Positions 4,422-47,815 are shown, counted from the stretch's first letter. The stretch is DNA of 55,525 nt from Girardia tigrina (GCA_001938485.1 MQRK01233039.1:20464-75988); one strand, 5' to 3'. Made by a program: numbers and translations. The notes: a model not told the origin generated them from the letters alone.

Positions 4422-4743
4422 GTATGGAGATTAGATACTATTGTCAGTATGCTCTACCATGGAATGCCAATGTCCAGTACAGACACAAATATAATCGTTC
4501 ATACTTGTGATCAAGAACTTTGTGTTCGACCACAACATCTTAGATTCAGGGCCAGTGCTGTCGCCCTTGCTGTGGTATTAAAAGCTCTTCAACAAGGGGG
4601 ATATCAGTTGATTCCTCCGAAAAAGAATTTAAAAGAGAAAGATAATGAAAAACTGGAATCTGGAGATCCTGAAAATGGATTGGAACCAAACAGTAACAGA
4701 TCAGGCTCTGCCAGCTCGAGTATTAGTGTTACTCAAAATCAAG
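4422..4743 (+). CDS. NFI: NFI/CTF-like transcription factor, exon A (C-terminal half of MH1-type DNA-binding domain); gene 5'-partial
   Basis: Polypyrimidine acceptor ttttttccag| at 4421 and donor G|gtatt at 4744. Translation VWRLDTIVSMLYHGMPMSSTD..HTCDQELCVRPQHL aligns in register with recalled NFI consensus [29 protein letters not shown]. Confidence 0.88.
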
Positions 4744-5657
4744 GTATTAATAGATTTCATTTTCCAATAATTACTTTATAATTTATAATATTAAGTACCC
4801 TTTCTATCGACTAAATTTACAATTAATATTTCTCATAGAGGGTTTGTTCTGGTTTAATTTGTCAATAATAACAAAATATGTTTTGTTTTGAAATAATTTT
4901 AATTTGTCTGTTATAGTTGTTTTGTAAATTATTATAATTATGAAACATTATAACATACTAAAATGCGTTTCAACAATAAATATACATACATATATAAGTA
5001 TTATATTTCTATATATATTTTTTGTATTAAAAGAATAATTCTAACACTTTCTAAATATAGCTTTTTGCCCATATTCAACTGTTCATTGAAGATTCGCTAT
5101 ACATCGAGATTTACCACTGCCGGAGGAAACCTCTTTAGCAATTGGGTGAAATCAGAATTCCATTAGAGCCGCTAGCAAGAGAGTAACGTTAGGAAAAGAA
5201 AACTTATTAAAGAAAAAACGTCTATGCTAGTATTTTATGTATATTGTATTAATTTACCAAATGATTAACAATTGGCTCAAGCAAAGTGACTTTCATGTAT
5301 CTGTTTCTGTAGACTTTATTTTGTCGATTGAGAATCAACCAGAAAAAAATTGATAAATTATTACTACAAATCAGCACAATTGCTTTGTTGAAAATCTTAC
5401 GCATTTTGTTTTATTTCTTGTATCTGTTTTTATAATTTGTTGTTTGAAATTTAAATTCAAATAATTATTATATTTATTATCATTATTTATATTCATTATT
5501 AATCATCCTCAAAGACAAAATTCAGTTCGACTTTGTTCAACATTTTGAAGAACAATCGCTGTTAATTTTTATTACTGTGATTTGCCTTTTGTTTACGTTA
5601 TGATATTTTATAAATAAGAAAATAAACTAAATTATTTAAATAAAAAAGAATTAAAGA

Positions 5658-6960
5658 TGTGAGTAATATTTAAACTATTGTGAATGTGTAAGTGTATTGA
5701 TACTGTATGTTGATTTAAGTATGTTGAATTTAGAATGGTGATTACCACCCAGATGGAAATTGGTATTTTTTAAAATTTAAAGTGATTGAACATTCGAACA
5801 TAATTAAAATAATAATTTAATAAGATTATATTTTTTAAATTAACAATTAAAATTAAGTTTAATATTTTTAATAAAATTTAAATTAAATTCATTTTCAATA
5901 ATTTGATAACATTTTTATTATTTTAGGTTTTTATTAAGAAATGGTTAAAATTATTATTTTTAATTAATAATTTTAGACGTTAAATATTTTAAAAAGATTT
6001 TGAAAAATTGTTCGAATAATCATGATAAAAGATAAATAATAAAACGATGTCAAACGGTGAAAGATCATCTGAGAGTTGTAATGACTCTAAATGTGATAGT
6101 AATAAAAATTCAAATGAAAATTGTCTCAATGTTCTTGGTAAAAGAGATTAATATGATTAAATAAAAATTTAAATAAAAATAATTAAACGAAAATCTTCGA
6201 AGAAAACTAAGACATTGGTGAAAAAACACCGCAGAAGGAATATTTCAGGTCGGAGATAAAGTCTTGATAAAGAAAGTTAACCCATCAAAAGAGGATGACC
6301 GTTAAATGGGACCAGCTAAAATTATAAAGTAAAGACACGAAAGAAGTTATGAGATACAGCTATATTATTACAGCATTTTGATCAGAAATGTAGTATGGCT
6401 AAGGCCTTTTCATTCGAGGGGGATGTGAGAAATATTTTAAATTGCTTGAATGTGTGAAAGTATTGATTCTGTACGTTGATTTGAGTATGTTCAAATTTGA
6501 ATGGTGATTCTCCCACCCAGATGGAAATTGGTATTTTTGTTAATTTAAAGTGATTGACTATTCGAACATAATGAAAATAATAATTTGATAAGTTTATATT
6601 TTTTAAATTAACCATTAAAATTAAGTTTAATATTTTTAATTAAAGAAAAGCATTTAATTATATATAAATAAAATTAATAAAATTTAAATTGAATTATTTT
6701 TTTAACAATTTGATAACATTTTATGGTTTTAGTTTTTTTATTAAGAAATGGTTAAATTTATTATTTTTAATTAATATTTGTAGAAATTAAATATTTTAAA
6801 AAGATTTAAATATTGTTAGACTAATAATTATTAAAAATAGAAATAAAAAAAACAAGTAGAACGATGTCAAATGGTGAAAGATTTTCCAAGAGTTGTAATG
6901 ACTCTAAATGTGATAATAATAAAAATTCTAATGAAAATTGTCTCAATGCTCTTAATAATA
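5658..6960 (+). mobile_element. Internally deleted (TRIM-like) LTR element: LTR 5658-~6135, ~290-bp integrase tail remnant, PPT, LTR 6424-~6960
   Basis: Two diverged ~480-530 bp direct repeats starting TGTGAG; internal VGDKVLIKKVNPSKEDDR*MGPAKII..HERSYEI (Gypsy integrase C-terminus); polypurine tract gagggggga immediately before the 3' LTR. Confidence 0.82.
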
Positions 6961-9127
6961 CGTTTCATAAACTTTGTTGCAGGAGCATATTCCTGAAGAC
7001 AACCAAAAGACCAAAATAATCTATTATAGGCATAAGTTGGATTTTAAAAATTCCTTTTGTTTTAGAAAAAATAATATTAAAAAAGTATATCTTGAGCGAC
7101 AATTTATATTATTCATGAGTTCATTTCGTAACTTTTCAAATCCGTCCCAGTTGTTTGACCAGTTAATAAAAGTTCCTTTCAATAAATGTTGAACTTTGTC
7201 TCTATCTTTCCTTTCTTTAATTTTTTCTTTTTGATTTTTTTATTCCTTGCTTTCAGACAGATTTTACACAGAACATAATGAAACAAAATTTTTACTTTGA
7301 ATTTTACTTTTTAAATAAATTATAACATACTTAAAAATATGATGTCAAATTAAAAATTAACAAGACAAAATCAATTATTATATTGTTGCACCAATCTAAT
7401 AATATAAAATGACCTTTTAGTTGGTTTAAAAATAGAAATAAGATTATGAATATCATTAATAATCTTAAGATGTTTCAAAATCAGAATATTATTGAAAAAT
7501 AAAAAAACAGTATTTCTTTACATCACAAAAGAATTTCTGAAGATTATTTTCTGAAACTATCAGAAATAGTAGAAAAAAATAAGAGAGTATTTCTGTCTGA
7601 TAGCGCATAATCGAATATTAATTATATCTGCTTCCTGCCCACTGACATTTTTGCATAGTCAGTAAATTAAAAAATTGAGCTCAGGGCTGTAAAAAAATTA
7701 TTTAGACAATAAGAACATAAAGACTTTAAAGAAGATTAGTTAATATGAATTGTATAATTAAAATTTACGATCAGAAATTTGTAAAAACATTGTTTCCTTT
7801 AGAAAAGACCTCATAATATTTATCTTTCATAAGGATGACCTTCAAAAGAAAGTATTAAAACAGTATATATTTGAACAAGGTCTTTGACATGTGTATTTCT
7901 AAGACGTAACTTAAATCAAATTTATGTTTATTATAAACAGTAATAACCACTACAATATGATATATTATTTGATAAACATTTTTCATATCTTAAATGATCG
8001 TCGAACAAGGTTCATTTTTAGAACTCGACTTTCATAGGGTATTAAACCAATCTTGTATTATAATACATTTTATTGGTGTGTCGTTATTAATATTACAAAA
8101 GAAAATTAGAAGCATCTTTTGGTGTAAATCAGGCGGCAAATGGAAGCGATTTTGATAAAATTGAAAACATTTGCAAGTTTATTTAGTCTTGATGGTTGAA
8201 TACATTTACTGTCAAAAGCCACGAAAATAAATCTATACTCCACTAGACACTGGCTTCGTATGGCGACGAAAGTGATAACGTGAATTTCCGGAGTTAAATT
8301 AAAATTCAGTAACTTTTGATTTATTATTATTTCTATTAATTTGACTTGGAAAATTTTGACTTTTTGAAAGGAACATTGGAAGTATTAAACATTAAAACCG
8401 TATTAACAAATTCTAAGAAAACAGATGAGCTTTTTTTCGTTTTAAAAAGAAAATGTTCTTGAGATGTTATATTGCAAACAAAATATAGCCTAAAGTTAAA
8501 AACATCAATTAAATTGTGATAAAAAAATGTCTGAAGTAAAGTCAATGAATAAAATTTCTGAGTTTGTTTTGTTGCTTGACTCAAATAAACCCTGAACAAC
8601 CACCAACAAATTCATGTTAACAACCAAAAGAGGTTCAATTGATTTGTAAAGGGAGAACATTAATTTTAACATTAGATATTCTTGCTCATTTTGAAAGTTA
8701 ATTAAACTGAAAAGTTAATAATTTATTTTCTTCTTGAGTAAAATTTAAAAAGAAATTTTTAAAATAACATAACATACAATATAATAAAATGTTCCACTTT
8801 TAACGGAAAATCTTTCTCGTGAGTAAAACAATTTTTATAAATAGAAACCTTTTATTCGGATTAGTGGGGCACTCTCTTCATTCCTACAAAGAATTATTTA
8901 TTATAAATGCGTGGTTCTCAAACTTTTCCTATTTGTGCTTCTTTTTCTAAGTTTGCTTTAGATTCATGGTATATTTCAAGAAAACTTTTTGATTGAAACA
9001 ATATAACAACAACTAAAGACAAAGATAAATTTTTATAAAGATCAATGATAAATATTTGGTAGAAGTGAAATACATTCCAAATAAATCTATGAAGATGTAA
9101 TTTATTTACAATGTTTACTTAAAATTA

Positions 9128-9129
<2 letters not shown>

Positions 9130-9180
<51 letters not shown>
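9130..9180. repeat. (ATT)n microsatellite
   Basis: Direct reading. Confidence 0.95.
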
Positions 9181-9182
<2 letters not shown>

Positions 9183-9552
9183 ATTATAATTCAATATTTC
9201 GTTGCAGTATATTATTAAAGAATATAAATGTATCGGTAAAAATGAGAAAATATATGTGATAAATTTCACAACCTTCATATTTTCTTCAAATGTCGCAATC
9301 CTGTTAAATTTATCATCAGAAGTTTTTTTTCGTGAAATAAAAGTATCCAAAATTAACGGCGGAAAAAGTATAGATTAAATGCATTTGTAAAATCTATTCT
9401 GAAAATCATTTAAAGAATGATGAGTTAAGTGATTTCTTAATTGTTCGGCTTCTTTCAGGTTTTACTCGTCAGTAATACAAATAATATGATAAGGGAATTT
9501 TATATTTCACACATGAAAATCAATATGGAGGATATGTTTTTTAAATATTATA

Positions 9553-11035
9553 CAGTGCTGGAAAAAAAGTCTTTTGACAGTGCACTTTTTTGCGATTTTT
9601 ACTGAAAATATATTACCAAAAACAGTTTTTCAACCCAATTTCTTAATACAACCTTATAAACGTATATTTTATCTATTTTAAGTAAAGAATTAATACCAGG
9701 ATTTTTTAATTTCAATCAAAAGAGAGAAATTTTTATTTAAAAACGATAAAATATCAAGCTAAAAGTTAATCAGGATAATACGGCATAAAATGAATAAAAT
9801 AGTAACAGGAATTGATAAAATACGTTAAAGGATCATAGTTTAAGCCAATCGAGTTCAATATTTGGTTGGGTACCATCTGTTTCGGATAACAGCTTCGATA
9901 CGGGGTGGCATGCTCTCTGCAAGTTTCTGGCACTCCTCTGCAGTGGTCTCTAGGCACCATACCCGTTTGATTTCCTCTTTTAATTGACTTATAGATGTTA
10001 TATCAATCTCACTGAGTTTCCTCTTCATGTTGGACCACAGATGTTCACTTGGATTCAGGTCTGGGCTGTTGGATGGTCAGTCAAGCAGCTCAATGTTGTT
10101 GTCCTGAAACCATTTCAGCGCCTTTTTTGAACAATGGCAATAGGCATTGTCTTGCTGGAAAATTGTACAACCATGGACGAAAATGTCTTCGAAATGTCTG
10201 ATTGGGGCAATTGTTGCTTTGGAATGAGCTGTCATCACTGAACATGACCTTTTTCCACTGTTCAATCGTATAATTCTTGTATTTTTCACAAAATTGTAAT
10301 CGCATCTTTCTCATTGCACTTGTAATGATTGGTTTTTTCACAGCTGTACGGGCTGGCATTTTGAATTCCTTGCACAGGCGATTTCTTATTGTATGTGTCG
10401 TAACATTGCTGCACTGCACTGTCAGATTGCGCTTGATTTGGGCAGAAGTAATAAAGGTATTCTTCACTGCTTGCCTTCTTATTAGTGCATCAACTCGGGG
10501 AGTGGTTGCTTTAGGCCTACCTAATCTTGTTTTAATTGAAGTATTGCCTTCGGATTCATATCTTTTTATTATATTGGCAACAGATTGATGGGAAATTCCA
10601 TACTGAACTGCAATTTCTCTTGTTGACAGACTTTTATTGCAGTGTAAAGCTATAATAGCACCTCAAATCTTTTGGTCAACTTTTTTTCCAGACATAGCAA
10701 AAAAAATTCGCGATTTGATTGGTTGATGAGGGAAGAAAGAAGGATAATGCATCATATGCAATACAAGTGACGCAGCTTATTTTGCATACACTGTACATAT
10801 AAGAGCATATTCACATGTGTATACATAGCCATGCATACATATTATTATGTAAGCATTATGTATGCTCACATAATATCCTTAAATAGTCTCACTCTATTAA
10901 TTCTTTACTTAATATAGATAAAATATACGTTTATAAGGTTGTATTAAAAAATTGGGATGAAAAACTGTTTTTGGTAATACATTTTCACTAAAAATCGCAA
11001 AAAGTGCACTGTCAAAATACTTTTTTCCAGCACTG
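9553..11035 (-). mobile_element. Tc1-family DNA transposon, defective transposase
   Basis: ~140-bp TIRs (CAGTGCTGGAAAAAA...), TA on both flanks. Transposase ATG at 10695, WKKVMFSDDSSF, FQQDNAYCH, SPDLNPSEHLW motifs with frameshifts and an internal deletion. Confidence 0.95.
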
Positions 11036-13899
11036 TACTTGTTATGGATATTTCTAGGGGCTACCATCTATTCTTAAATAACTGAAATATAGGAAATAAA
11101 TTGTTCTTTTAGCCACTCTTCTTATAGTCATTTTTTCTCGTAATCAACAGTTTATTGAATTTGTTAAAATTTTGCTCCTCTTTCCTTTCATAATCATAAT
11201 TGACCATTAAAAATAGATTATCGTTTAAAACTTACAGGATTAATCTAATACGTTAATCAAAATGTTTGTTAATCAGTTTTATGGCGAGTTATTATTAAAA
11301 GTGTTGTAACAAATTGAAGATTGAACACCTAAAGGGAAGTTTGATTTCACTTTTGATAATTTAATTTTAGAAAATGGAACTTTATCTTTAGTTTTTCGAT
11401 TTAATACTTTTGGGGTCTTCACACTAATATTACTGATTTCTCGACACAAGGTTTGTTTATGAAATGTTTGCGCTTCTCTTCAGATACAATTTTCAATCAA
11501 AAAAGTTTTAAATGAAATCAAGGATAGCAATACGTTGATTTGATGAATTAATTCGTCTATAACCAAGCATGATATAGATGCTAATGATTATTTCATTGGG
11601 AAGCTTATCCAAATTTTGTGTAATCCTACTAATTTGTTGGAAGTTACTTAGGGAAATAGCAATTAGGGTGTGCATAAGATGAGGAGCTCCTGGCAAAAGG
11701 CTGCTGATCATAAATTTCAAATGACCAATTTCCTGAATACAAAAAGTCCCTAATCTAAATATTTACTTATCTTCCACTCATTGAAAGACTTATTACTCTT
11801 ACAGATATCTATCTTAGCACAAACGTTCTGTTTTTAGTTTATCTCTGTTACTTTACTTAATTTACATAACAATTTTTAGTAATTATTTTCCTTATAAATA
11901 TCATTATTTATTATCCTTTTTTCATTTGGAAATTGAACAAATTAATAAAAGAAGTTTCTCCATTATTAAGTCTACGTCGTCAACAGACACTTCAAACTCC
12001 GCTTTTGCTTTTTATCCAAGCAAAATTATCAAAAAAATATTTCCACTAAATTATTTTTTTTATTTTTTATTATTTTTATGTTTTTCGATGGAATAAAATT
12101 TAATTCTAAATTGTGCAGTGATTATTGATTTTAAATTGACCTTTTTTATTTATGATTTTGAATACGTTTTACAACACGGTTTTATTAATCATATGTTAAT
12201 AATATTTTTGTTTGATATAATACTCAGGAAATTCTAATAGCTATTTCAAAAAATCTTAATTATTACATTTATTATTTAATCAATTCAAAAATATTTAAAA
12301 TATTGAAGTTAAAGTACTGTAAATATATATTCACAAAAATATTTACAAATTTTTTTAAACTCAAATATTTAGGAAAATGTAAATTGCTATTGAAAATAAA
12401 TCATTAATATTAAAATATTCCAAAATCAACGCGCCGTCATGATTGGGACACCTTTACAAAAAGTAACACAAACAAGATCTGGTGAGAACGTTAGAAGAGG
12501 TAAAACTTGAAATTGATGTAAAGATACCATTTTCACGAATCACATGATTAAACGCGTTAAAATGATGGATGTGATTGACTTGATAAAACACTTTTGTAGT
12601 TTTCTCTTTGAGCATTCATGACCTACGCAAACAACTTTTGAATTTTTTATATCAGTTCCAGGTGATGAACTATAGTTTAGAGGTCACCTATTCAGGTAAA
12701 TTAATTTGTTGTTTGAAGTGTTTTTTTCATGTAATAAAGCGTTTACATGTTCTTAGTATCCCTCAACTCAGAATTTTCATCTTTAAATCTGGAAAACTAT
12801 TTTAGTGAAACTCTTTTGATTTGCAAATTTTCCTTAATTATTTTATATAATTTGGTTAACTTTCACTGTTTTGACACTTTGATTAAAGGTAAATAAAGGA
12901 TGTTGGTAATGATCTTCAAATTTAATTAATAAAAAAATACACAAATAATTTTAAAGGATATGTTAATACTTCGTATATAAAAATGAACAAAATAGAAAAC
13001 CCTTAAAATTGAATGAGATTAAAATAGCGTGTGAACTAAGGTCTAAATAAGATAAATAATTTCTGTCAAACAAATAAAAAACAAAATCATTATTCATTGT
13101 GAATACAATTTAAATTTTAATTACATAAGATCATCCTTATTTTGAGTTATTTTAGAGAGTTTTAAACTTCAAACATAATTAATATAAGTTTTTATTAACC
13201 ATGCACTTGTTCAATATGTACCCAAGCAAACAGATAGATAACAACATTAAGGTTACATTGGACAAAAATGTACACAAACACTGGTTAAAAGGAAAAAAGG
13301 AAGAAAGCATTGAAGAGTACAAACAAATAATCAAAATAACATATTCAGAAGGATATAAAGCTGATCAAGTAAGATTCTTAATCATAGATTACGTTTTAAA
13401 AATATAATCTATTCCATTTCAAAGGATAAGTTTTCTGTAAGGGCTTTTATTCACATAATGACCTTTCTTTGAATCATTATTGATAAGAATACGACATCCC
13501 ATTAATTAGTATTCTAAATGGGCAAAGTAAGGCCTTCTCCATTCTTAACATATTTAATTAAAATAAATAAAAAAATTGTCCAGTAAAGTCCTTTCAAATT
13601 TAATATTTACTGATAAAATTTCCAATTATTTAACATTTTTATTTAACAATAGAAAAAGGTACCGATACAGGGGATAGTGATGTAAAGCTATGTTGGAATT
13701 TATGGAGACAGTAAATGACCTATTTACTTTATCTCCAAGGTGAAAACAACAATTCCTTAAAGTATTTAAACAAAGAATTAATAAACAATAATTGGAGAAG
13801 TTTAGTAGTACAAAAAGACCATTTATTCACCAATTAAACAAGCTAAAAGCTACACCAACTCAGATTCACACTCAAAAACATTCATTCACAGGTAAAACA

Positions 13900-14840
13900 A
13901 ATACTGTATGCACTGTGGACTTACTTACTGTACTTTACGATGCATTCTTGAAGAAGTCCATTATTTTCGTTTGTTTTGTCGCCTTTGTCATCTCTATCAA
14001 CACTTCTTCATTGAGATTCGAAAATGCACGTAAGTGAGAATCAGTAAATCTTGAAGGAGTTAGTAAGAATCGTTCCACTACTTGCAAAGCTTACATTGTT
14101 TCCTTGAACTTAAGAACAACAAGAACATCAGAATCATCAATTTCATCTTCCTAGACCACGTCTAAGATCTCTGTTGTTTTTGAAGAAATGTCATGGTTTG
14201 ATTTCCACTGGTTTATCCAATTTGTGTCTATTTCTACGTCTCCACTTATTTCTCCCAGAGTCTTGGCAAATGTCGTTTCTTTTTGTCTAAGAATTTCTCC
14301 ACTCAGTTGGCTGTTCTGTTCGCATGATTGTGAACCATTCTACCAAAGCTTTGGATGTCTGCTCAAATTTCGTTGATTTTATTCGTTTAATATTTCCAGT
14401 GATGCATTTCTCACTGCAGAGACATTTAATTTTTTCTTGGCCTTTCAAAATATCACAAAGTGTTTGCGTTTTGACATCAAAATGCTTCGTGATATCAGTT
14501 TGCTTTAAGGCCTTGTTTTGCTCTGCAAAATAGACGAATTTATACTTGCATTCTAAGCGAATTTCTGTTTGTGCTCGCTTCTTGGCCATAGCTAAAAAAT
14601 AAATAACTAAATAATTAATAAATTAAATAATCAATATCTTTTAATATCTTTTTTATGATAATAATATTTACTACTGAACAGAACTTAAATTTTTTATTTC
14701 ATTTTAACCATAGATATTCGTGCTTAATTTCACGTTCAACAATATTAAATATACGGATAAGGTTTACAAAATATAGACTTGGTTTAGAAAAATCTTCCGG
14801 ATTTCACGAATATCCGGATTAGGCAAATTTGACTTTATGT
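13900..14840 (-). mobile_element. Tigger/pogo-like transposon remnant (N-terminal HTH + CENP-B-type HTH)
   Basis: ORF 14287-14589 (KRAQTEIRLECK..KQTDITKHFDVKTQTLCDILK..KRIKSTKFEQTSKALVEWF); acidic C-terminal remnant near 14050-14200; ends uncertain. Confidence 0.7.
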
Positions 14841-14927
14841 ATATATATATATTATCTAGAATTAATAATGGCATTTTTAATAAAAATGCAAACAAAGGTC
14901 ATTTTTGATTATTAACTTTATTGACAA

Positions 14928-14964
14928 TACAGACGCGTTTCACCATCTCGGCATCTTCAGTGCA
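14928..14964 (-). ncRNA. Minimal type I hammerhead ribozyme (PLE-associated), best-preserved copy
   Basis: Minus strand UGCA-CUGAAGA-U-GCC GAGAU GGU-GAAA-CGC GUC^UGUA: complete core, stems I and II, palindromic ACGCGU at stem III, GUC cleavage triplet. Confidence 0.88.
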
Positions 14965-15043
14965 ATGAAATAAAGTGATTAATTACTATTTATATAGTTG
15001 AAAACTATTACATCATACGTCTCAAAAACATGCTTTTTGTCAT

Positions 15044-15080
15044 TGCACTGAAGATGCCGAAATGGTGAAACGCGTATGTA
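15044..15080 (+). ncRNA. Minimal type I hammerhead ribozyme
   Basis: UGCA-CUGAAGA-U-GCC GAAAU GGU-GAAA-CGC GUA^UGUA. Confidence 0.85.
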
Positions 15081-15123
15081 TTGTCAATAAATTTAATAAT
15101 CAATAATGGCCTTTGTTTGCATT

Positions 15124-15230
15124 ATATATATATATATATATATNNNNNNNNNNNNNNNNNNNNNNNNNNNNNNNNNNNNNNNNNNNNNNNNNNTATATAT
15201 ATATATATATATGTGTGTAAGTGTGTGTGT
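15124..15230. repeat. (TA)n/(TG)n microsatellite with gap; other (TA)n at 15893-16002 and 50629-50665
   Basis: Direct reading. Confidence 0.9.
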
Positions 15231-15887
15231 GTACTCAGACTTCAAAAAATACCGAATTAATCTATTATCCAAATGTACAAAATGAGAAGGAAGTTTAAAT
15301 TAGATGTTTGAAAAAAACTTAAATCTCTTTGATAAAATTTAAATCTCCTTAATAAAGTATTTTTCTTTTTATATTTTCATTTTAATGTCATTAATATTCA
15401 TAATTTTAGAACTCTTTTATAGCTTTTGATTAAAATTAAAAGAAACTTTATATTTTTGATTTGACAAACAACAATTGTATATTTCTATTCAGATAAAGCA
15501 ATAATAATATTTATACTAATTATACGGAGAAAGAATTACCTTAGAAGATTCGGTAAAATAATGAAAATTGTAATTTATTTATACAGAAATAACTTAAAAT
15601 AATATTTAAATATTTGGTGCATTTACATCAAATTGTTTATTATACGGATCTAAAATTCCTAAATAAATTAACCTTTGAAACTCTTCTATGAAATAAAATA
15701 TAATATAAATATATATTTAAAAAGATAAATAAACATTTGATATAGCATAACCATTATCCGCTTTATACATAAAGTTATGTTTATAAAATTACAAAAATTC
15801 TTATTTAATAAAATAGAAACTTTAAAATTTAGTAAAGTAGTCAGTAAAGATATTATGGTTAAATTAACAAAAAATATCTAGAATATA

Positions 15888-15921
<34 letters not shown>

Positions 15922-16005
15922 NNNNNNNNNNNNNNNNNNNNNNNNNNNNNNNNNNNNNNNNNNNNNNNNNNNNNNNNNNNNNNATATATATATATATATA
16001 TATTA

Positions 16006-17545
16006 TAGAACTGATAATGGCATTTTTAATAATAATGAAAAGAAAGGCCATTTTTGAATATTAAATTTATTCACAATACGTACGCGTTTCACCATTTCGG
16101 TATCTTCAGTGCAATGAAATAAAGAGATTAATTACTATTTATATAGTTGAAAAACTATTACATCATACGTCTCAAAAACATGCTTTTTTTTCTCCTTATT
16201 TTTTTAAAGTATTTTAATGATATTTAAAAAACTTTAATATGATTAGATGAATCACCTTGCACGTTTAAGCATGGTTTATGATGCTTTATTAACAATGTTT
16301 CGGCAATAATCCTTTCATAATTTGTGTCAAAATTATTTAAAATCACTTTAAAATCTTTATTCTAATCTATAAGATTACCTTTACATCTTTTAATATGGCT
16401 CAATATCGAACTATTTCTACTCGAATGAGTATGTTCAGCAATTCTAGTGCGGATATGACGACTTGTCTCTCCAATGTACAAGGCTTCGCACTTGTGACAT
16501 TTGAATTGATAAACTAGATTTGTCTGCACAAAGGAGTTTTTGATTTGTTGGAAAAATAGTTCCGGCATTTATTAGTTAAAAAGATTACTCTCAATTTTAA
16601 GCCAACAGGTGTTCGATGTTCTAAAAATCGTTTGAACTCCTTTGCTCCCTCTGAGTACGGTAATTTTAGATTGATAGTCATTTGATTATAAATGCCATTT
16701 CCCGAAGTTATATTTGATGTATTATTTGATTTTAAATAAATGGATTCAACAGTATCTTTTATGATTTTATTTAAATACTTTTTATTAAATCCATTTTAGA
16801 AAGCCTATTATGAAGTTCATCAACTTCATTATCAAATATCTCAAAGGTTGATGTTAAACCCCAGACTCTATGTACCAAACCTTTAATTATGTTCCTATTG
16901 TATTTTGGGTCAGAAAAACTGTTTGGACAACTGTACAAACCGGTATCAGTTGGTTTTCGATATAATCGAGTCTGATATTTATCTTTAATGCTTTCAATTA
17001 ATACATCTAAAAATGATAGTTTATTAGTATTTCAAAGGTAAACTTGATATTATGGTGAAGACCATTTACATACTCTAAAAAGCGTGAGACATTATCTTCA
17101 CCTTTCAATATAAGAAAAGTGTTATCAACATATCTCGTATAAAATAAAGGTAATTTTCCATTAAAATTATTGAACTTTTGTTCTAAATTATGCAAAAAGA
17201 GGCAATCAAAGGCGTTAAAGGTGAACCCATAGCGATTCCATCAGTTTGCATAAACCATTTTTCATTAAAAATAAATGGTACGTTTTTAGTACTGAATTCC
17301 AATAATTCTCTTAATGCTTTACTACTCAATGACTTAGTTTTATCTTCTACCAAATTATCCCATAATTTAACTCATAAATTAATGGTTTCTCATTCATTAA
17401 GATTTTAAAGTGATTTTAAATAATTTTGATACAAATTATGAAAGGATTATTGCCGAAGCATTGTTAATAAAGCATCATAAACCATGCTTAAACGTGCAAG
17501 GTGATTCATCTAATCATATTAAAGTTTTTTAAATATCATAAAAGA
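16006..17545 (-). mobile_element. Penelope-like element (RT + GIY-YIG endonuclease), 5'-truncated, with inverted 5' repeat
   Basis: RT motifs QTDGIAMGSPL, RYVDNTF, YRKPTDTGLY; EN motif VYQFKCHKCEALYIGETSRHIRTRIAEH; ~17397-17545 is the inverted copy of ~16210-16355; stops and frameshifts present. Confidence 0.93.
16077..16113 (-). ncRNA. Minimal type I hammerhead ribozyme (stem I mismatch)
   Basis: UGCA-CUGAAGA-U-ACC GAAAU GGU-GAAA-CGC GUA^CGUA; A-C mismatch at the first stem I pair. Confidence 0.78.
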
Positions 17546-19152
17546 CTTTTTTTAAAGAAAAAAAATTTCATTCCAGTAATATTTTCCGTAGCGTTCTCTC
17601 GTCTTGGTGAGTAACTGCATTCAGGCTAATATATTGGCTAAATTGATCAATTATAGCCAAAATATACTGATATCCATTAACATTTCTGTTGAATGGTCCA
17701 CAAAAGTCAATATATATCTTTTGAAAAGGTTCATCTGCAAATTACTTAATATGTCTTTCTTTTGTTTTCGCAGTTAGTGTTTTTCGCTTTTGACAATTTA
17801 TGCAACTTTGAACAACTTCTTTTATCTTTTCTCTCATATTTTCCATATCAAAATCATCTCTGAGGTAGTTAAAAACCTTTTTACTCGCAGCATGACATAA
17901 CATCTTATGCATATCTTCAATATAATCGGTTCTATTTGTTCTCGGGATCCAGTACTTATTATTTTCCGTTGCTACAATGTCATCTTTCAGTTTCCATTTA
18001 TTTGTTCTTCCTTGTTTCAAATCGTTTTTGATTTTTTTCGATTTCTTCATTGTCATTCTGCCATTTGAAATTATTTGGTTCTTCGTGTAACGCTAGAATT
18101 CGAGTTTTAATCTTTCCTTTCTTCGCTTCTTCATGTGTTGTTTGGCATTGACTACATAATNNNNNNNNNNNNNNNNNNNNNNNNNNNNCATTTGAATGTC
18201 TTTCACCTTTCCTGTATTCCATTCTCATATCAAGACCGCTGAGAAAATTTATCCATGTTTGAAATTGCGGTGTTATTGGGTTCTTTGTGGTCATCATAAA
18301 CGTAATAGCTTTGTGGAATGTTCGCAACAAGAATCTTTTCCCATATAAGAAATGCTTAAAATGCTGAGTGAAATAATATATCGCTAGTAATAATTCTTTT
18401 CTGGTAATGCAATAACCAAGTTCATGTTTATTCATCTTATGAGAACCATATGCTATGACTCTTTCTCTTCCACTCGAGTCTTTTTGTGACAGTACTGCTC
18501 CAATCGTATCNNNNNNNNNNNNNNNNNNNNNNNNNNNNNNNNNNNNNNNNNNNNNNNNNNNNNNNNNNNNNNNNNNNNNNNNNNNNNNNNNNNNNNNNNN
18601 NNNAGCTTCGTCACATTCTTTTGTCCATATTATTTTCTTATCCTTGTTTTTGCCACACAGGCCTTCTAAAACTTTCGAATATCTTGCATAATCTTTTATG
18701 AATTTTCTGTAATAATTTGTCAAACCCAAGAAATTCCTTAAATGTTTAATATATTTGAACATTTTGAAATTTGTTAATCGCATCGATCTTTGTTTTATCA
18801 GTTTCTATACCATTACCACTTATTACGTACCCCAAAAACTTGGTCTTTTCTACTAGAAATTGACATTTCTCTGGATTTATCCTCAAACCTGATTCTTTGA
18901 TTTTTTTAAATTTCTTCATTCTTCGTTTTGCTTCTTTTTTCTTCCATTTTACTACTAAAACAGTTTCCTTCACATTCTTTCCAACAATCTAATTTTCAAT
19001 CACACACACATTCACATACACAATCACACACACCATCATACTTATTTTTATCACTTAATGAAGCACATTGATCACCTCTCCTTGTGATCGTGCCTCCTCG
19101 TTTCCCTGCTCATTTTCACACCTTTGTCTCTTATCTTGGAAGACCCTTTTAG

Positions 19153-20082
19153 TTAACTTTCCTTGATTTGATCTAGTCTCTTTGTATTCGCTGTCGTCAT
19201 TGCATTCATCAATTTCCGCAACTGGGTATTGACGATTTTGAGGTCTATTATTGTATCCTGCATTATTTTTTTCTTCCAATCGCTGTTTCTACTGTACTGT
19301 TCTCTTTCCTTAAATATATTCTTGTTGAGATAACATTGAGTTCTATAATGGCCATTTCTGTTGCAGTGAGTACACTTCACATTTGGACAATCTCTTCTTA
19401 TGTGGCCTTCTTCTTCACATGCATAACATTTTACGGTTCTGTAATAATTGTTTTTCGGTTTGAATCCATTATTTCCTTTGTTCCTATTGTTGTGTTCGTA
19501 ATGCCTATGCGGGGTTCTTTCGTTATGTACAGCTTTGCGTCTAGTTACGGTTTTCCAATTATCTTGTTTATTTACCGTCGTATATGCTGCCACTGTTTCC
19601 TCACTTTCCATTTTACGTAGTTCGTACATATTGGTAACTACGCTTTTTATATCTTTGGTTTCAGTTGTTCCTCTCAGTTTTAATTCTTTTTTGATTTCAT
19701 AACTGTCAACCATATTTAAACGGGCAAGGTTGAGTAGTTCTTTTTTAGACAATTTTTCTTTGGTTAGTATATTCACAAGTTCTTCTGCTTTTTTGTATGT
19801 TTCTTGTGGGTTGGAGGATCCCCACCGTAAGTTTACCAACTCATTCATTGTATCCAGAATGGATTTTTCTTTAGTAAATGCAGCCTTCAATTTTTCTTTG
19901 TAATTTTTACCGTCCATCTCTGAATATTTTTTTATTGCCGACGGTGTCATAAACACAGTCACCATCACTATTTTCCTCTCTTCTGCTATACCCATAATGT
20001 CGGAATAGCGTTCGAAATTATCAATGAAATCTTCCAAATTCGATTCTGATCCATTGAATTTTTCACATCCCATAATGTTCAT
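19153..20082 (-). CDS. gag: Gypsy gag (open frame, two CCHC knuckles)
   Basis: Part of ORF 19153-20184; the true start is probably downstream of the PBS at about 20082 (MNIMG...). Confidence 0.8.
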   Translation of the reverse strand: MNIMGCEKFNGSESNLEDFIDNFERYSDIMGIAEERKIVMVTVFMTPSAIKKYSEMDGKNYKEKLKAAFTKEKSILDTMNELVNLRWGSSNPQETYKKAEELVNILTKEKLSKKELLNLARLNMVDSYEIKKELKLRGTTETKDIKSVVTNMYELRKMESEETVAAYTTVNKQDNWKTVTRRKAVHNERTPHRHYEHNNRNKGNNGFKPKNNYYRTVKCYACEEEGHIRRDCPNVKCTHCNRNGHYRTQCYLNKNIFKEREQYSRNSDWKKKIMQDTIIDLKIVNTQLRKLMNAMTTANTKRLDQIKES

Positions 20083-20091
20083 TGTCACATG

Positions 20092-20105
20092 AGCCGTGGT
20101 CGCCA
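20092..20105 (-). promoter_or_regulatory. Putative primer binding site (TGGCGACCACGGCT)
   Basis: TGG-initial GC-rich motif at the junction of AT-rich LTR-like sequence and gag. Confidence 0.65.
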
Positions 20106-20594
20106 TATTAACAGCATCACAATTTGAATGCAAACATTTATTGACAACACAAACACTTTCTTCACAACAATTTTCATTGGTCATCTTTCTTTGATTGATA
20201 TAGTTTTTTTTGTTAATATATTCAAATCTAAAAAAACAACGAATGGGAAAGATTAATAATAAATTTTAATTTCTCATAATTTTTATTGGATAAAAGTCAT
20301 TACATAATTTTTTAAATAAAAATTAATTTTTAAAATATGTTTTTATATCTTTGGTTTCAGTTGTTCCTCTCAGTTTTAATTCTTAATAAGTTAAAATCAT
20401 TTACTGAAAATATTATTAAAATTCATAATTATCAAACTTTAATTAATTAGTACTTAAATTTAATATCATTAAATTAATTTCATTAGATTCAAATAATCGA
20501 TCAATAAACATATCAATCCCATCTGATTAGGAGAGTCACAAATCTAAACAGCATACAAACAACAAACTGACAACATTCCAAATTATCCTTCACA

Positions 20595-20630
20595 GCACTG
20601 AAGATGCCGAAATGGTGAAACTCATATGTA
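20595..20630 (+). ncRNA. Degenerate hammerhead ribozyme copy
   Basis: GCA-CUGAAGA-U-GCC GAAAU GGU-GAAA-CUC AUA^UGUA; core intact but stem III palindrome mutated. Confidence 0.65.
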
Positions 20631-20674
20631 TTGTGAATAAATTTAATATTCAAAAATGGCCTTTGTTTGCATTA

Positions 20675-20848
20675 CGTGGTGTGCTCAATAAGTAGTGAGC
20701 CTAACATAAAAATAATAATCCGATTCCAATGAAATTTATTTTTCATAACAAGCAAGTTATATCTTAATAACTTGCTTGTTATGAAAAAAATTCATTGGAA
20801 TCAGAATATTATTTCTATGTTATTCTCACTACTTATTGAGCGCACCAT
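20675..20848. mobile_element. Fold-back MITE, Tc1/mariner-type
   Basis: Whole element is an imperfect inverted repeat (ggtgtgctcaataagtagtgag...ctcactacttattgagcgcacc) with a ~6-nt centre; TA flanks. Confidence 0.85.
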
Positions 20849-21686
20849 ATATATCCTAAATTTATATGATGATACTAATTATTATAAAAACCTGATTTTT
20901 TTTCATTCATCAAAAGTGATATTTTAAGTTTTCTGTCTTTAGGAAATTAAAGCATATGATACTTTGGAAATCATTACAAAACAAATAAGAGAAAAATATG
21001 AAATAAATATAATTTTTAAAGATATTTAAATATTTTGGTTTGTATAGTTTATTTTAAAACTAAGTTTATTGTGCAACTAAGTTTAGTTAAATTAATTAGT
21101 TAAAATATTTATTAACTAAAAAGATTTAACAATTACTTTATTTATTAAATATACTATATTTTATTATAAATGATACTGACCAATAGGATTGCAACATTAA
21201 AGAAATGAATGTCACTAGTAAAGTCTACCGAAGGCCGTCTGAGTGCTCATTTACTATCATTAGCACTTTCGATCTATTTCAACATCATTTGCATTAAAGT
21301 TAAATATGTTTATCAGATTTTTTTAAATACACTGTATATATATGTGCAAGCAATAAATAAAAATATCTAAATTCGTTTCATTTTATTTTCGATTTACTAC
21401 ATAATGCTGTTTAGATATTTAGACTTTATATCAATAGTATTATATCTTTAGTATGAAAGCAAAAAGCGTGTCCGGAAATTTCTACGAAAATATTTTTAGG
21501 AAGGAAATTTATGAGAATTGAAATTTATACAAATAAAATTAATAAAATGTTTTTCAGAATACAAATTTATGACTAAAAAATGTAAATTTATTTACGGGGA
21601 TGTTTTTTTTCATTTTTGTCAATGTCTATAGATATCCTCAATTAAATTGTCACAAGAAAGAACATGAATTCGACTTTGAATATGTA

Positions 21687-22416
21687 CAGTCGATACCGGT
21701 TAGTGTGAGGTTGTCGGGACTTGATGTTGATGTCACATTAACCGAATCATACTGAAAACTTTATAATGTGCAATTTACAGCGCATGTTTGATTCCGGCAG
21801 ATAGGATATCACTTGAATTCTCATTATCATCTTATTTCTTCCAAAAGTATTCAATACATAGATGTTTAATAATAATAAATATGTGTATAAATATAAGAGT
21901 TTGTATTTACAAACAAAAGTTGTAATACATATTTTAGAAAAGAAAAATTATTAGTACTGGGGCTGAACGTAAGCCATTCTTTTGCCGTTTTACCACCAGT
22001 TGGATTACTTCCCTTGTAAGCCAGTATACCCGATGGTGTTGCTCGATAAAGCAGCCCAGTTTCATCCAAATTGTATTGATCGTTTGAGCTGTACTCCAGT
22101 ATTCCAGGAAAAATATTTTCAATCCGGTTATCACCTCTAATGTATCAGCTGCGGCCTTTTCACCATTTATACGGTGAAAAGTGATGCCATCTCTAACCTT
22201 CAGTCGCTCCAGCCAACTGTGTGTTGGTGTGAAATCAACTCTGAGCTTTATAGCCAACTGCGCAGCTTTTTTTTAGTATCAATGGACCGCTTGCAGCTGC
22301 CACATTAACCGGAGTCATACTAACCGGACCAACTTTGTATATAAAAAAGAAACTCAAAATTCGGGGAATGTCAAAAGTGTCACATTAGCCGGAGTCACAC
22401 TAACCGGACTCGACTG
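21687..22416 (-). mobile_element. Non-autonomous pogo/Tigger element with transposase fragment
   Basis: TIRs CAGTCGAtaCCGGTTAGTGTGA / TCACACTAACCGGacTCGACTG, TA flanks; SWLERLKVRDGI and NLDETGLLYRATP...GGKTAKEWLT motifs. Confidence 0.9.
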
Positions 22417-22644
22417 TACTTTGATTTATGATGCAGTATAATGAAATAATAATATCTGCTTAACAAGTTATGTAACAATTTCATAATATAACGCAATACT
22501 TTGACGTGCTTGTGGTTACCAGTTAATATTTGAATTTTACCGGCCTTTTTGTACAGATAATTAACAGTTATAAAGGAACAAATAAAACTAACAAATATAT
22601 ATTAAAGAATTTGGACCAACATTATATATATGGGAAGCTTTCGC

Positions 22645-23030
22645 CAGAGCCGTAATGAGGGCGGTGCGGCCGCACCGGGCGCATGGGCGCCAAAATCGCA
22701 AAATGACCAATTTTAATTTTGTTTCGTTTTTATTATATATTAAAGTTGAAAAGTTATAAAATCAAAATTTTGTTAGTTTTTTGTTATTATTTTATGCGCA
22801 ATATGGCAACAACAATTTAAGTGATTTTGCATTATTTATTAATTATCTATAATCTATTATTTCATTGCAAGGCTTAAGCATCAATGCTGCGTCATAGAGC
22901 ATGTGAATACGAACGTCCAAAGTCAATTTAATTCTTTTAAGGCATAATTTGTAGTAGTGAATGTTTTTCGCGCTGGGGGCGCCAGATTTGAACTTCGCAC
23001 AGGGCGCAATTTTTCCTTACTGCGGCTCTG
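22645..23030. mobile_element. hAT-type MITE with 8-bp TSD
   Basis: Termini CAGAGCCG...CGGCTCTG; perfect TSD GCTTTCGC at 22637-22644 and 23031-23038; GC-rich subterminal motifs. Confidence 0.9.
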
Positions 23031-23461
23031 GCTTTCGCCGGCCAGAATAACGAAATGATATGCTTTATGATAAATTACATATAATAAATTATAATTCCCC
23101 GAAATTTAATACATACATATAATTCCAATCAATTAAGTCGAATAATAGGTCACATTATTTATTGTTAATAAAACAAGATAATATTGTTCCTATTTAGTCA
23201 ACGTTCTCAAATCATTGCAATGACGTTTTCATTTAAAGAACAATACTTTCACCTTTCATTTACAGTTAAAATCACATATTTTAGGTTTCTTTTTCTTGGG
23301 AAATAGGCTGTAATGATGATTTGATTTCCAAAGTGATAATAATTATAGAAAATAAATAACCGAAAAGTAAATCACAATATACTTAAAATAAATATAAAAA
23401 AAGTATAAAAAAATAACTTTTTAAATTATTGAAATTTATTTAAATTTCATAATTATTTTAG

Positions 23462-23530
23462 ATGAAGTTGAAAATTCTGTCGAAATATCCGGACCTTTTA
23501 ACATCGAACAAATCCAGCAGTATTTAATAG
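23462..23530 (+). CDS. NFI: NFI-like gene, exon B
   Basis: tttag| acceptor, phase 1 matches exon A. Reads (D)EVENSVEISGPFNIEQIQQYLI, resembling the conserved NFI post-DBD motif DSFVTSGVF/WxVTELVRV. Donor G|gtttt at 23531. Confidence 0.78.
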
Positions 23531-23575
23531 GTTTTTGATCTTTTCTATCAGATTTTAAATAACCTGTTAATGTAG

Positions 23576-23876
23576 AAGACTTAAAACCATGTGTTCAGTC
23601 TCTTGAAAAAATGGTTTTAAGTGCAACAGACCGGTCAATTTTATGTGCACATCCTGATCTTGACAACATCAATAGTTCAACTGCCATTTCTGCCACTTAC
23701 GATTCTCCAAGAACAATTGTGAATGATAGTTCTTCTCAGTATAAAGCATTCCACTTTGATAAGTCAAATAATTCAAGACCAATGAAAAGATTAAACAATC
23801 ATTTGGCACCCGACTGTAAGTCACCGAATTCCATAAAACGAGGTCGAATGTTAGATCGTAAAGCAGGAAGTAAAAG
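23576..23876 (+). CDS. NFI: NFI-like gene, exon C
   Basis: tgtag| acceptor after a 45-nt intron; phase 1 puts it in frame with ORF 23611-23901; donor AG|gttatt at 23877 (phase 2). Confidence 0.78.
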
Positions 23877-24128
23877 GTTATTTAAAACTTTTTTATATTG
23901 AAGTATTTCTTCAAATTTCAATTATTATAATACTATTTTATATTACTTCCATTAAATCAATTGATAAGGATATATTATATTATATCAAATGATTATATTA
24001 TTTCAGTATATTGTGTGTGTAATTTTTTTTTTATTCTTAAAAAAAGAACATTTTTATATTTTTAAAAAAAGTCGTTTTTGTTTTTTATTTAAACAATTAA
24101 GTATCATTTTTTAATTAATTGTTAGGAT

Positions 24129-39115: not shown

Positions 39116-40088
39116 TATTGGGTCCGAAAAGTAATGTGCGTTTAGCATATAGCTAACTTTAACGGGCATTATTAGCTATATAACTTAATTAAAAATCTAC
39201 AGTGTATATGTATTAATCTATTGCTTTATTGAAAAATTTAATGAAGTAATGGAAAATTTTAAATTCAAGGACCATTTTTAAATGGAGAAAAAATCGGAAC
39301 ATTTACGAGACATTATTATTTTTTACTATAGAAAATGGAAAAATGCATCTGCAATCTGGAAAAAGATTGAATATTTATTGAGAGAATGTGTCAACTAAAT
39401 CTACTGTAAGATGATGGTTTGTTAAATTCAATGCTGGAAATTTTAACCTCGAAGATTTTAATCGCCTGGATGACCTTCTGCTGTTGATGCTTTGTCAAAT
39501 TAAGGAACAGATTGAGTCAAATCCAAGATTAATTACTCGTGATATAACAGAGGCCGTGGGTATTCCAAAAAGCACCCTTACACCAAAAAAGTCTTGCTCT
39601 GTGTTTTGTGGGATTTTAACGGTGTCATAAATTACGAACTTAATTCTGATGTGTACTGTCGTCAGCTAAAAAATTTGAACCAGAAATACAGGAAAAAAGT
39701 CTGGAACTGTCAAACAGAAAAGGTGTTCTGCTTCAACATGACAATACAAAACAACATGTTTCTATCATCACTCGTAGAAAATCATGCGAGCTATGATAGG
39801 AGGTGTTACTCCATCCACTATATTGACCTGATCTACATCAGACTTCTATTTATTCCGGTCCTTGCAAAATTCTTTGAATGGAAATTTTTTTTAATTGTGA
39901 GGCTATCAAAAATCATGTGGATGCGTTTTTTGAGTCAAAACTTATGGAATTTTGAAACTACCTGAAAGATGAATTGAGGTCATCGAACAAAACGGCAAAT
40001 ATTTCACTGAATAAACTTTGTTCTTTCTTCTAAAAAACTGATTTTAATATTCATGAAATAACGTGCATTACTTTTGGACAAGTCAATA
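39116..40088 (+). mobile_element. Internally deleted mariner
   Basis: Imperfect TIRs (tattgggtccgaaaagtaatgtgcgtt / aacgtgcattacttttggacaagtcaata); WFVKFNAGNFNLED, KKVLLCVLWDF, HDNTKQH, HPLY*PDL remnants. Confidence 0.88.
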
Positions 40089-41199: not shown

Positions 41200-42432
41200 C
41201 TTATGATTTTTAAGTCAAAAAATTTTCGTCTGAATATATTGTGATTAATTTCGACGGATCAACCGTCATCATCAGACTGAATTAACAATGATATACTCGC
41301 GTTTATATATCAAAGCAATGTTTATGTAATCATTATGTCATTTAAATCATNNNNNNNNNNNNNNNNNNNNNNNNNNNNNNNNNNNNNNNNNNNNNNNNNN
41401 NNNNNNNNNNNNNNNNNNNNNNNNNNNNNNNNNNNNNNNNNNNNNNNNNNNNNNNNNNNNNNNNNNNNNNNNNNNNNNNNNNNNNNNNNNNNNNNNNNNN
41501 NNNNNNNNNNNNNNNNNNNNNNNNNNNNNNNNNNNNNNNNNNNNNNNNNNNNNNNNNNNNNNNNNNNNNNNNNNNNNNNNNNNNNNNNNNNNNNNNNNNN
41601 NNNNNNNNNNNNNNNNNNNNNNNNNNNNNNNNNNNNNNNNNNNNNNNNNNNNNNNNNNNNNNNNNNNNNNNNNNNNNNNNNNNNNNNNNNNNNNNNNNNN
41701 NNNNNNNNNNNNNNNNNNNNNNNNNNNNNNNNNNNNNNNNNNNNNNNNNNNNNNNNNNNNNNNNNNNNNNNNNNNNNNNNNNNNNNNNNNNNNNNNNNNN
41801 NNNNNNNNNNNNNNNNNNNNNNNNNNNNNNNNCGATTTGGAATATCCATTTTTATGAAGTAAATTCATTAACTTATCAATACTTTCATTACATTTAGCGT
41901 ACGTAGACGAAAGTGTCCAAGATCTATAGATCAAATCTTTTATCATATTTCCTTTATATTTAGGTTCACAAAAACTGTTAGGGGTTGTATATAACCCTGT
42001 ATCAGTTTTCTTTCTATAGATCCCAGTTTCAAAATGGTTGTTTTTTGCTCTTTCTATCAAAAGATCTAAGAATGGTAANNNNNNNNNNTTTTCATATTCT
42101 ACCGTGAATTTTATATTTGAATGTAGGGAATTCATATAATTTAAGAAAGGCTCAACTTGTTCTTTATTATCAAACAATAGAAAAATATCATCTACATAAC
42201 GTTTATAAATTTTTAGATTTAACACCATCATATAGACTTATTTTCTCTTCAATCTTTGAAAGAAATATCGAAGCTAAAGTTGGAGCTAATGGAGAACCCA
42301 TAGCTACCCCATCAACCTGTTGATACCAATCATTATTAAATAAAAATCGTAAATTCGATGTTGCAAAATATAACAATTCCCGAAAAGCAATCTCATCAAC
42401 TAAATGATGTTCATTAACATTATTTCTCCATA
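41200..42432 (-). mobile_element. Second Penelope-like element (RT; probable EN region hidden by N gap)
   Basis: QVDGVAMGSPLAPTLASIFLS, RYVDDIF, LPFLDLLI, IYRKKTDTGLY; hammerhead-containing 3' repeat near 41240-41280. Confidence 0.9.
41241..41277 (-). ncRNA. Minimal hammerhead ribozyme of the second PLE family
   Basis: GU-CUGAUGA-U-GACGG UUGAU CCGUC-GAAA-UUA AUC^AC: 5-bp stem II, palindromic AUUAAU; stem I only 2 bp adjacent to the core. Confidence 0.75.
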
Positions 42433-43591: not shown

Positions 43592-43795
43592 AGCAGTTAT
43601 AAAGACTTAACAACTTTATGTTCACCAAAATGAAGACTTGAAATTAAAAGAAACCAATTTTTGGATTAAAAAGTGTCAAACCACTTAATAGATTTCTATT
43701 AAGTGGTTTGACACTTTTTAATCCAAAAATTGGTTTCTTTTAATTTCAAGTCTTCATTTTGGTGAACATAAAGTTGTTAAGTCTTTATAACTGCT
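43592..43795. repeat. Long palindrome, 101-bp arms with 2-nt spacer
   Basis: 43592-43692 is the reverse complement of 43695-43795; no mismatch found by eye. Confidence 0.95.
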
Positions 43796-47330: not shown

Positions 47331-47730
47331 CGTGGGCTGCCCGAAATGTTCTTAGCCTATCAATCAAAAACAAAAATTAAATTTGAAAAGATATATTTAT
47401 TTTTTGATATAATCTCCTTAAATATAATACATTTATTCCAACTTTTTTATTTGTTCTATTTTATTTCTAATTATCTTTCAATGATATTTAATGAAATTTT
47501 TCATTGTTAAATATAGAAGAAATAGTTATGAGTTTTTGATTCCGCCTCGCCAAAACTTTTGCCGTTGTTGACCACTGTTCTGCCAATAAACCCAGGTTTC
47601 ATCAGCTGTAAAAAGGCGATATAGAAAATTGTTGCGGTGGAGCTTTCGAAGTAGTTAATTGTTTACAGCTTCATCATTTGTTGTGAAACGCTTTACAGTA
47701 AGGAACTTTTTAGGTTAGGAAATAAATACT
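47331..47730 (-). mobile_element. Inverted 3' fragment of a mariner related to 47816-49082
   Basis: TA-CGTGGGCTGCCCGAAA TIR; 47640-47728 is reverse complementary to about 48850-48945. Confidence 0.8.
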
Positions 47731-47815
47731 GATATGATGAATGTATTACGTATGCTCCTTCGTATGCCACAGTAAAAATTGGGTTTCGGAATTCAAAAGT
47801 GGTCGTAAAAGCGCA

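Follow-up and report, generated by a model that had tools for sequence, protein, structure and literature searches.

The stretch of DNA analysed here, 55,525 nucleotides of the flatworm Girardia tigrina (GCA_001938485.1 MQRK01233039.1:20464-75988) and called the window throughout, contains part of an NFI-like gene, one intron of which holds a cluster of four hammerhead ribozyme motifs. Very probably these are minimal hammerheads from the pseudo-long terminal repeats (pLTRs) of an abundant Penelope-like element (PLE) family, left in a spliced intron probably by two insertions (A and B) that are 5'-truncated and lie back to back, and both copies on the transcribed strand are predicted not to cut. 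In window coordinates, the locus comprises:

4423..4743, + strand: coding exon of the NFI-like gene, encoding the DNA-binding domain's second half (VWRLD...); adjoins the intron on its 5' side.
4744..23461, + strand: intron holding the hammerhead cluster, GT..AG, 18,718 nt.
14836..15038, - strand: long arm of insertion A; tailed fragment of a PLE 3' pLTR, adjoining a (TA)n tract.
14916..14970, - strand: hammerhead copy 1; C3 at 14960, ACGCGU, position 17 = C; antisense in the pre-mRNA.
15033..15125, + strand: insertion A, inverted short arm; no tail, ends at a (TA)n tract.
15038..15088, + strand: hammerhead copy 2; C3 at 15048, ACGCGU, position 17 = A at 15076; sequence intact.
15985..17395, - strand: insertion B, body; 5'-truncated PLE with the C-terminal part of the reverse transcriptase (RT), GIY-YIG endonuclease, 3' pLTR with tail, (TA)n.
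16069..16119, - strand: hammerhead copy 3; C3 at 16109, A-U replacing G-U in stem II, ACGCGU; antisense in the pre-mRNA.
17396..17571, + strand: first part of the inverted arm of insertion B; covers the end of the endonuclease gene but lacks about 75 nt of pLTR.
17572..20594, - strand: nested Ty3/gypsy-type long terminal repeat (LTR) retrotransposon remnant; 3'-truncated, LTR end at 20594.
20595..20674, + strand: insertion B, inverted arm, likely last part; no tail.
Within 20595..20674, + strand: hammerhead copy 4; C3 at 20598, ACUCAU, 3 bp of core stem I left.
23462..23527, + strand: next NFI-like exon, from RNA contigs and homology.

A first-pass annotation of this sequence had described four CUGAAGA...GAAA cores in the orientations -,+,-,+, three of them with the palindrome ACGCGU and two on the pre-mRNA strand, and had identified them as minimal type I hammerheads of Penelope pLTRs. 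The window scan recovered the same four CUGAAGA-U-stem II-GAAA cores (C3 at 14960(-), 15048(+), 16109(-) and 20598(+)), with ACGCGU at 15.1-16.1 in copies 1-3 and ACUCAU in copy 4, and the predicted cleavage positions 15076/15077(+) and 14932/14931(-), where position 17 is A and C, had been rightly placed. The identification also holds: all four copies carry CUGANGA and GAAA boxes with an NUH cleavage triplet, and stems I and II are present with the extra nucleotide before stem II. Core stem I has 4 bp in copies 1-2 and 3 bp in copies 3 and 4, and stem II has 3 bp in copies 1-2. Copies 1-3 possess the palindrome for a dimeric stem III and copy 4 lacks it; across the family, ACGCGU occurs in 66 of the 72 scored copies, a figure partly due to how the loci were chosen. 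The G10.1-C11.1 closing pair of stem II is replaced by G-U in the ACGCGU family (U at position 11.1 in 69/70 copies) and by A-U in copy 3; other hammerhead families in this genome have G-C. The window copies are 88-92% alike across 85-93 nt, and their 31-nt core has 1,232 exact matches (622 + 610) in 1.43 Gb against none for the reversed control, so the motifs are not chance occurrences. A covariance-model search had been put forward as a check, and in the Rfam scan of the window no hammerhead appeared even at E<=1, the output being four weak unrelated hits. Folded in isolation, the copies are not more stable than shuffles (z 1.05 to -0.81), as is expected of dimer-dependent motifs.

Copies 1 and 2 make up insertion A, a non-coding inverted pair of only ~290 nt between (TA)n tracts. 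Its long arm is 91% similar to the pLTR end of insertion B and reaches 114 nt past C3; the short arm is 92% complementary to 14885-14975, from which it is 57 nt apart, and reaches 77 nt past C3. In insertion B, a GIY-YIG domain at 16365-16520(-) scores 24.3 bits against a cut-off of 22.6, in a frame broken by stops and frameshifts, and a sister copy (L046) has RVT_1 above its cut-off followed by GIY-YIG at 21.5 bits, just under the 22.6 required. The family thus displays the single frame of RT then GIY-YIG that characterizes endonuclease-bearing PLEs, and also a pLTR with hammerhead at both ends of the frame, an inverted truncated copy and a one-sided tail. Copies 1 and 2 and copy 3 belong to this Penelope-like family. 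The inverted arm of insertion B, from 17396 onwards, is 97% complementary to 16213-16360, and its last letters before 17572 are those that precede stem I in the pLTR. There it meets the nested LTR remnant, which contains a gag zinc knuckle, RNase H and an integrase zinc finger (Pfam) and whose bounds come from sister copies: matching begins at 17572, and most copies stop at 20594-20597 with unrelated flanks beyond. The letters on either side of the remnant are those bordering the 5' strand of stem I in the pLTR. Copy 4 is therefore likely the far end of the insertion B arm, which the LTR element would have divided later, within stem I. Both pairs in the window consist of one tailed and one untailed arm, facing outwards.

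This arrangement is not peculiar to the NFI intron. The family has a minimum of 1,232 exact core copies. With a looser pattern there were 8,353 forward-strand matches (control 2) and 14,054 on the reverse strand; the reverse count is inflated by overlapping ends, and our estimate is some 16,000 minimal hammerheads genome-wide, one per 85 kb, in several families. Among the first 100 matches to the looser pattern, the families carry the palindromes ACGCGU, ACAUGU, ACUAGU, AUAUAU and AUUAAU. The layout was examined in 64 non-redundant loci, after 10 of 74 had been removed as overlaps, duplicates or the window itself. A copy was present in 52 of the 64 and two or more in 19, and the 20 neighbouring pairs comprised 17 -+, 2 ++, 1 -- and no +- (15, 1, 1 and 0 once three loci chosen for having two hits are set aside); pairs are undercounted because many contigs are short. 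Copy ends cluster about 77 or 114 nt past C3 (28 and 30 of 72, respectively), and tail plus short arm is the commonest -+ class (8/17), to which both window pairs conform. The -,+ layout in the window is therefore the usual footprint of a family insertion and nothing special. Core spacing within pairs ranges from the 88 nt seen in the window to 2,317 nt, and the point at which an arm enters PLE coding sequence varies. Differences at subfamily-type positions are frequent between the two arms of a single insertion (L041 and L054 are examples, and copies 1/2 and 3/4 show them too), which suggests two templates per insertion. A third-family (AUAUAU) pair also faces outwards, at L013:7539(-) and 8533(+), 1 kb apart and near a contig end, and a GIY-YIG-like remnant of another Penelope-like family was recognized by eye upstream on the same contig as the window (L011:3975-4340).

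For the transposon itself, these hammerheads probably act as ribozymes, to judge from the pattern of their sequence, which looks selected. In six other loci (L010, L052, L061, L063, L067 and L069) a same-strand hammerhead lies directly ahead of the PLE frame and overlaps it, and for this reason we assign the motif to the pLTR. The first codon of the frame is an AUG in stem II (MVKRVCIV...), and 4/6 of these loci have it open for 100 codons. As the AUG was observed inside stem II in L052, L061, L063 and L069, the predicted cut would part the start codon from the remaining frame. Position 17 is A, U or C in 35, 24 and 10 of 69 family copies. A guanine at the cleavage position blocks hammerhead cleavage. 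G occurs there in only 2 of the 1,232 family copies and would be silent in the overlapping valine codon, although a few founder lineages could give the same pattern. In an active transposon, we infer, the palindrome would allow a dimeric hammerhead to assemble from two tandem copies and to process the element RNA. Motifs of this kind are described as without activity as monomers and of low activity as dimers (PMC4209133), and the results given in PMC11167929 include that cleavage is unneeded for insertion in vitro and that the cut site of an Anolis PLE coincides with neither the start nor the end of any read.

The host gene appears to be a divergent flatworm-type NFI. Against NFI structures, exon 4423-4743 gives a weak phmmer match (E 9e-5), and it is 61-88% identical to flatworm CTF/NF-I proteins (26 hits among 374 candidates); Pfam found no CTF/NFI domain in this exon or in an upstream coding exon of the NFI domain, placed by homologues outside the window at L012:4093-4302. 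The intron holding the cluster is spliced: the 3' end of exon 4423-4743 is joined to 23462 in contigs of 4/4 runs, which come from four studies, three of the runs being classed as RNA by a program's guess and one being unlabelled. RNA contigs continue downstream of exon 23462-23527 through a 45-nt intron into an exon reaching ~23876, which is joined to ~30957, and homologues place downstream NFI segments at about 23470 and 31888. The cluster had been assigned to intron 1, which is wrong because coding exon L012:4093-4302 precedes the window; it lies in at least intron 2, and probably in the third or a later one, as contigs of X5 and X14 carry 1,006 nt ahead of the downstream exon, a length for which the two known exons do not suffice. 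The very short GT..AG intron at 23528-23572, found in 4/4 runs, sits beside one of 18.7 kb. A single exon at 23563-23898 was considered and rejected, the RNA contigs showing the 45-nt intron there. In an exon search of the genome, a paralogue (L077) matched at 82%, and there were four places at 59%, among them a more distant paralogue (L078, L079).

We then ask whether the sense copies could cut the NFI pre-mRNA, as the first-pass annotation had proposed, with the antisense copies pairing to them as a switch on a transcription-factor gene. The predicted hairpin between copies 1 and 2 has a folding energy of -128.3 kcal/mol (z -20.3, with 0/200 shuffles as stable), and the ribozyme-competent fold of copy 2 lies 71.5 kcal/mol above it; 15 of its 17 core and palindrome positions are predicted to be unpaired with a probability under 0.003. 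In the host pre-mRNA the antisense arm would be transcribed first and would then zip up with copy 2, giving a hairpin of about 86 bp. Copy 3, in antisense, offers a further predicted partner to copy 2 (-120 kcal/mol) and to copy 4 (-114 kcal/mol). Antisense pairing thus stands as a prediction, and it is the switch that lacks support: given the 71.5 kcal/mol, the models predict a one-way lock with no ON state in cis. Nor is a working dimer to be expected, for the only same-strand partner of copy 2 is copy 4, 5.5 kb away, and their hexamer helix contains two mismatches (+0.9 kcal/mol, compared with -7.5 for copy 2 with itself and +3.4 for copy 4 with itself). Copy 4 has a broken palindrome and has lost the outer 5' strand of stem I, damage that falls at functional positions; it would in addition face an antisense partner upstream. 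With copy 2 predicted to be locked, copy 4 damaged and spliced mRNA present, cutting of the intron finds no support. Of 73 positions, copies 1-4 depart from the family majority at 7, 4, 2 and 3, where 66 other copies have a median of 4; the window copies therefore show no extra conservation, and their divergence is ordinary for this genome. On these models the cluster is most likely neutral debris in the host transcript that would silence itself.

Several observations weigh against this interpretation. The core and palindrome of copy 2 are fully intact. The folds are equilibrium predictions, and proteins, editing or helicases could open the hairpin; the spliced mRNA means that some transcripts survive, which is compatible with partial cleavage. 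The principle of an intronic ribozyme is real, since an optimised intronic hammerhead reduced mRNA levels 13.6- to 20-fold in zebrafish (PMC11856399) and Cpeb3 mRNA is modulated by the ribozyme in its intron (PMC10919898). An under-representation of tandem retrozymes in the introns of Xenopus is reported in a 2026 preprint (10.64898/2026.07.22.740005); this hints that active motifs in genes are selected against. The genome yields a single match to the intron and no empty allele or haplotig of it. As to insertion B, copies 3 and 4 are only 91% alike whereas the neighbouring arms reach 97%, the pLTR is ~75 nt short, and the search for a recognisable target-site duplication gave none; the ends lie in (TA)n tracts with assembly gaps. 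The placing of copy 4 in insertion B stays provisional because of the lower likeness and the lack of a duplication.

Of the other explanations, the one that survives best, though we hold it to be improbable, is that the motifs remain uncut and the long hairpins act as double-stranded RNA, through editing, small RNAs or slower splicing. One intron does contain two predicted duplexes, of ~86 bp at -126 kcal/mol and of 148 bp (16213-16360 with 17396-17543) at -215 kcal/mol. However, like hairpins arise at a large share of family insertions, and any such effect would for that reason be generic. Somewhat less credible still is a role in trans. With ~16,000 minimal hammerheads divided by palindrome into families, an intronic sense copy such as copy 2 would be completed by RNA from its own transposon family, and activation of the transposon would cut host pre-mRNAs including that of NFI; the back-to-back layout would then be the lock that makes intronic insertions tolerable. 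The regulatory switch, in which the sense copies once freed from antisense cut the NFI pre-mRNA and lower NFI output as Cpeb3 does, is very unlikely. Copy 2 is intact on the transcribed strand and intronic ribozymes are able to lower mRNA, but the open fold would have to overcome 71.5 kcal/mol, copy 4 is doubly damaged and leaves no competent partner in cis, the geometry is the family default, and the window copies are not specially conserved; published minimal hammerheads are in any case weak even as dimers (PMC4209133), and the Anolis PLE cut site is reported without read ends (PMC11167929). Because both sense copies are predicted inactive, a gene switch is not to be expected. We give least credence to the idea of a non-autonomous family, of mini-elements or retrozymes, in which each pair moves as a unit and is not a stub of a full Penelope element: insertion A is indeed small and non-coding, but the variable core spacing, arms that continue into PLE coding sequence at varying points and the lack of head-to-tail monomer arrays in 14000-21500 led us to reject a mini-element or non-LTR retrozyme.

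The preferred reading, of self-silencing Penelope debris, agrees with much of what has been described for PLEs, though literature searches, which did not extend to subscription journals, turned up no paper on this particular locus or family. Pairs of minimal hammerheads on opposite strands, 100-700 bp apart, are reported in PMC4209133. The palindrome with a 2-nt insertion resembles those of Drosophila virilis and rotifers in the same paper, whereas stem II, with 3 bp closed by G-U (A-U in copy 3), departs from the conserved G10.1-C11.1 tendency and the longer helix II of Schistosoma given there. The ~16,000 estimated here are more than the 9,000 for Xenopus tropicalis (PMC4209133), a figure obtained with a different descriptor. 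As in the endonuclease-bearing PLEs (Penelope/Poseidon, Neptune and Nematis) of Craig et al. 2021 (PMC8557442), we find 5' truncation, an adjacent inverted truncated copy, a one-sided tail, RT followed by a C-terminal GIY-YIG, and (TA)n targets such as that paper gives for Naiads; the tail, ~37 nt from the end points 77 and 114 nt past C3, falls within the published 30-40 bp. By eye, the RT-endonuclease linker of L046 contains no CX2-5CxxC of the extra Zn-finger that the Penelope/Poseidon clade lacks; placement in that clade would be tentative. A further match is Poseidon PAc of Anolis (Frangieh et al. 2024, PMC11167929), where the frame likewise begins within hammerhead stem II, targets are AT-rich and there are two initiation sites, comparable to the two preferred 3' ends found here; in PAc the start codon stands at the beginning of stem II, whereas here the AUG occupies the loop and 3' strand of stem II. 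Host ribozymes offer another comparison. Like the hepatitis delta virus-like ribozyme of Cpeb3 (PMC10919898) and the amniote intronic hammerheads (PMC6765202), copy 2 is a motif of the self-cleaving kind that lies in a long intron, on its sense strand. For the Cpeb3 ribozyme, a measured half-life matched to transcription and an effect on mRNA are reported (PMC10919898), and the amniote motifs are termed ultraconserved in a title cited by PMC6765202. In contrast to such host-retained ribozymes, the window copies are young, high-copy transposon ends, partner-dependent, predicted to be sequestered and without extra conservation.

As found, the locus cleanly exemplifies, in an intron of a flatworm, how Penelope elements are already known to insert; it is one case among thousands and of little significance in itself; if the switch or activation in trans were true, a transposon ribozyme would control a transcription-factor gene. 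The genome is of wider use. With many hammerhead families, a very high density of motifs and G avoided at the cleavage site, it is well suited to asking whether PLE hammerheads cut in vivo, and also whether introns are purged of lone sense copies.

Elsewhere in the window, a fifth hammerhead of another family occupies 41245-41282(-) (at 41275(-)), with CUGAUGA, a 5-bp stem II closed by G-C, the palindrome AUUAAU and C at position 17; it is probably still inside the NFI-like gene, in antisense. A perfect 101-bp inverted repeat with a 2-nt spacer at 43592-43795, resembling a miniature inverted-repeat transposable element, is the source of weak Rfam microRNA hits. DNA transposon remnants lie at 9587-11003, 14290-14622, 21869-22272, 39543-39962 and 47325-49089; they are Tc1-type with 109-nt inverted ends and mariner-type (Pfam), together with two pogo-like pieces recognized by eye.

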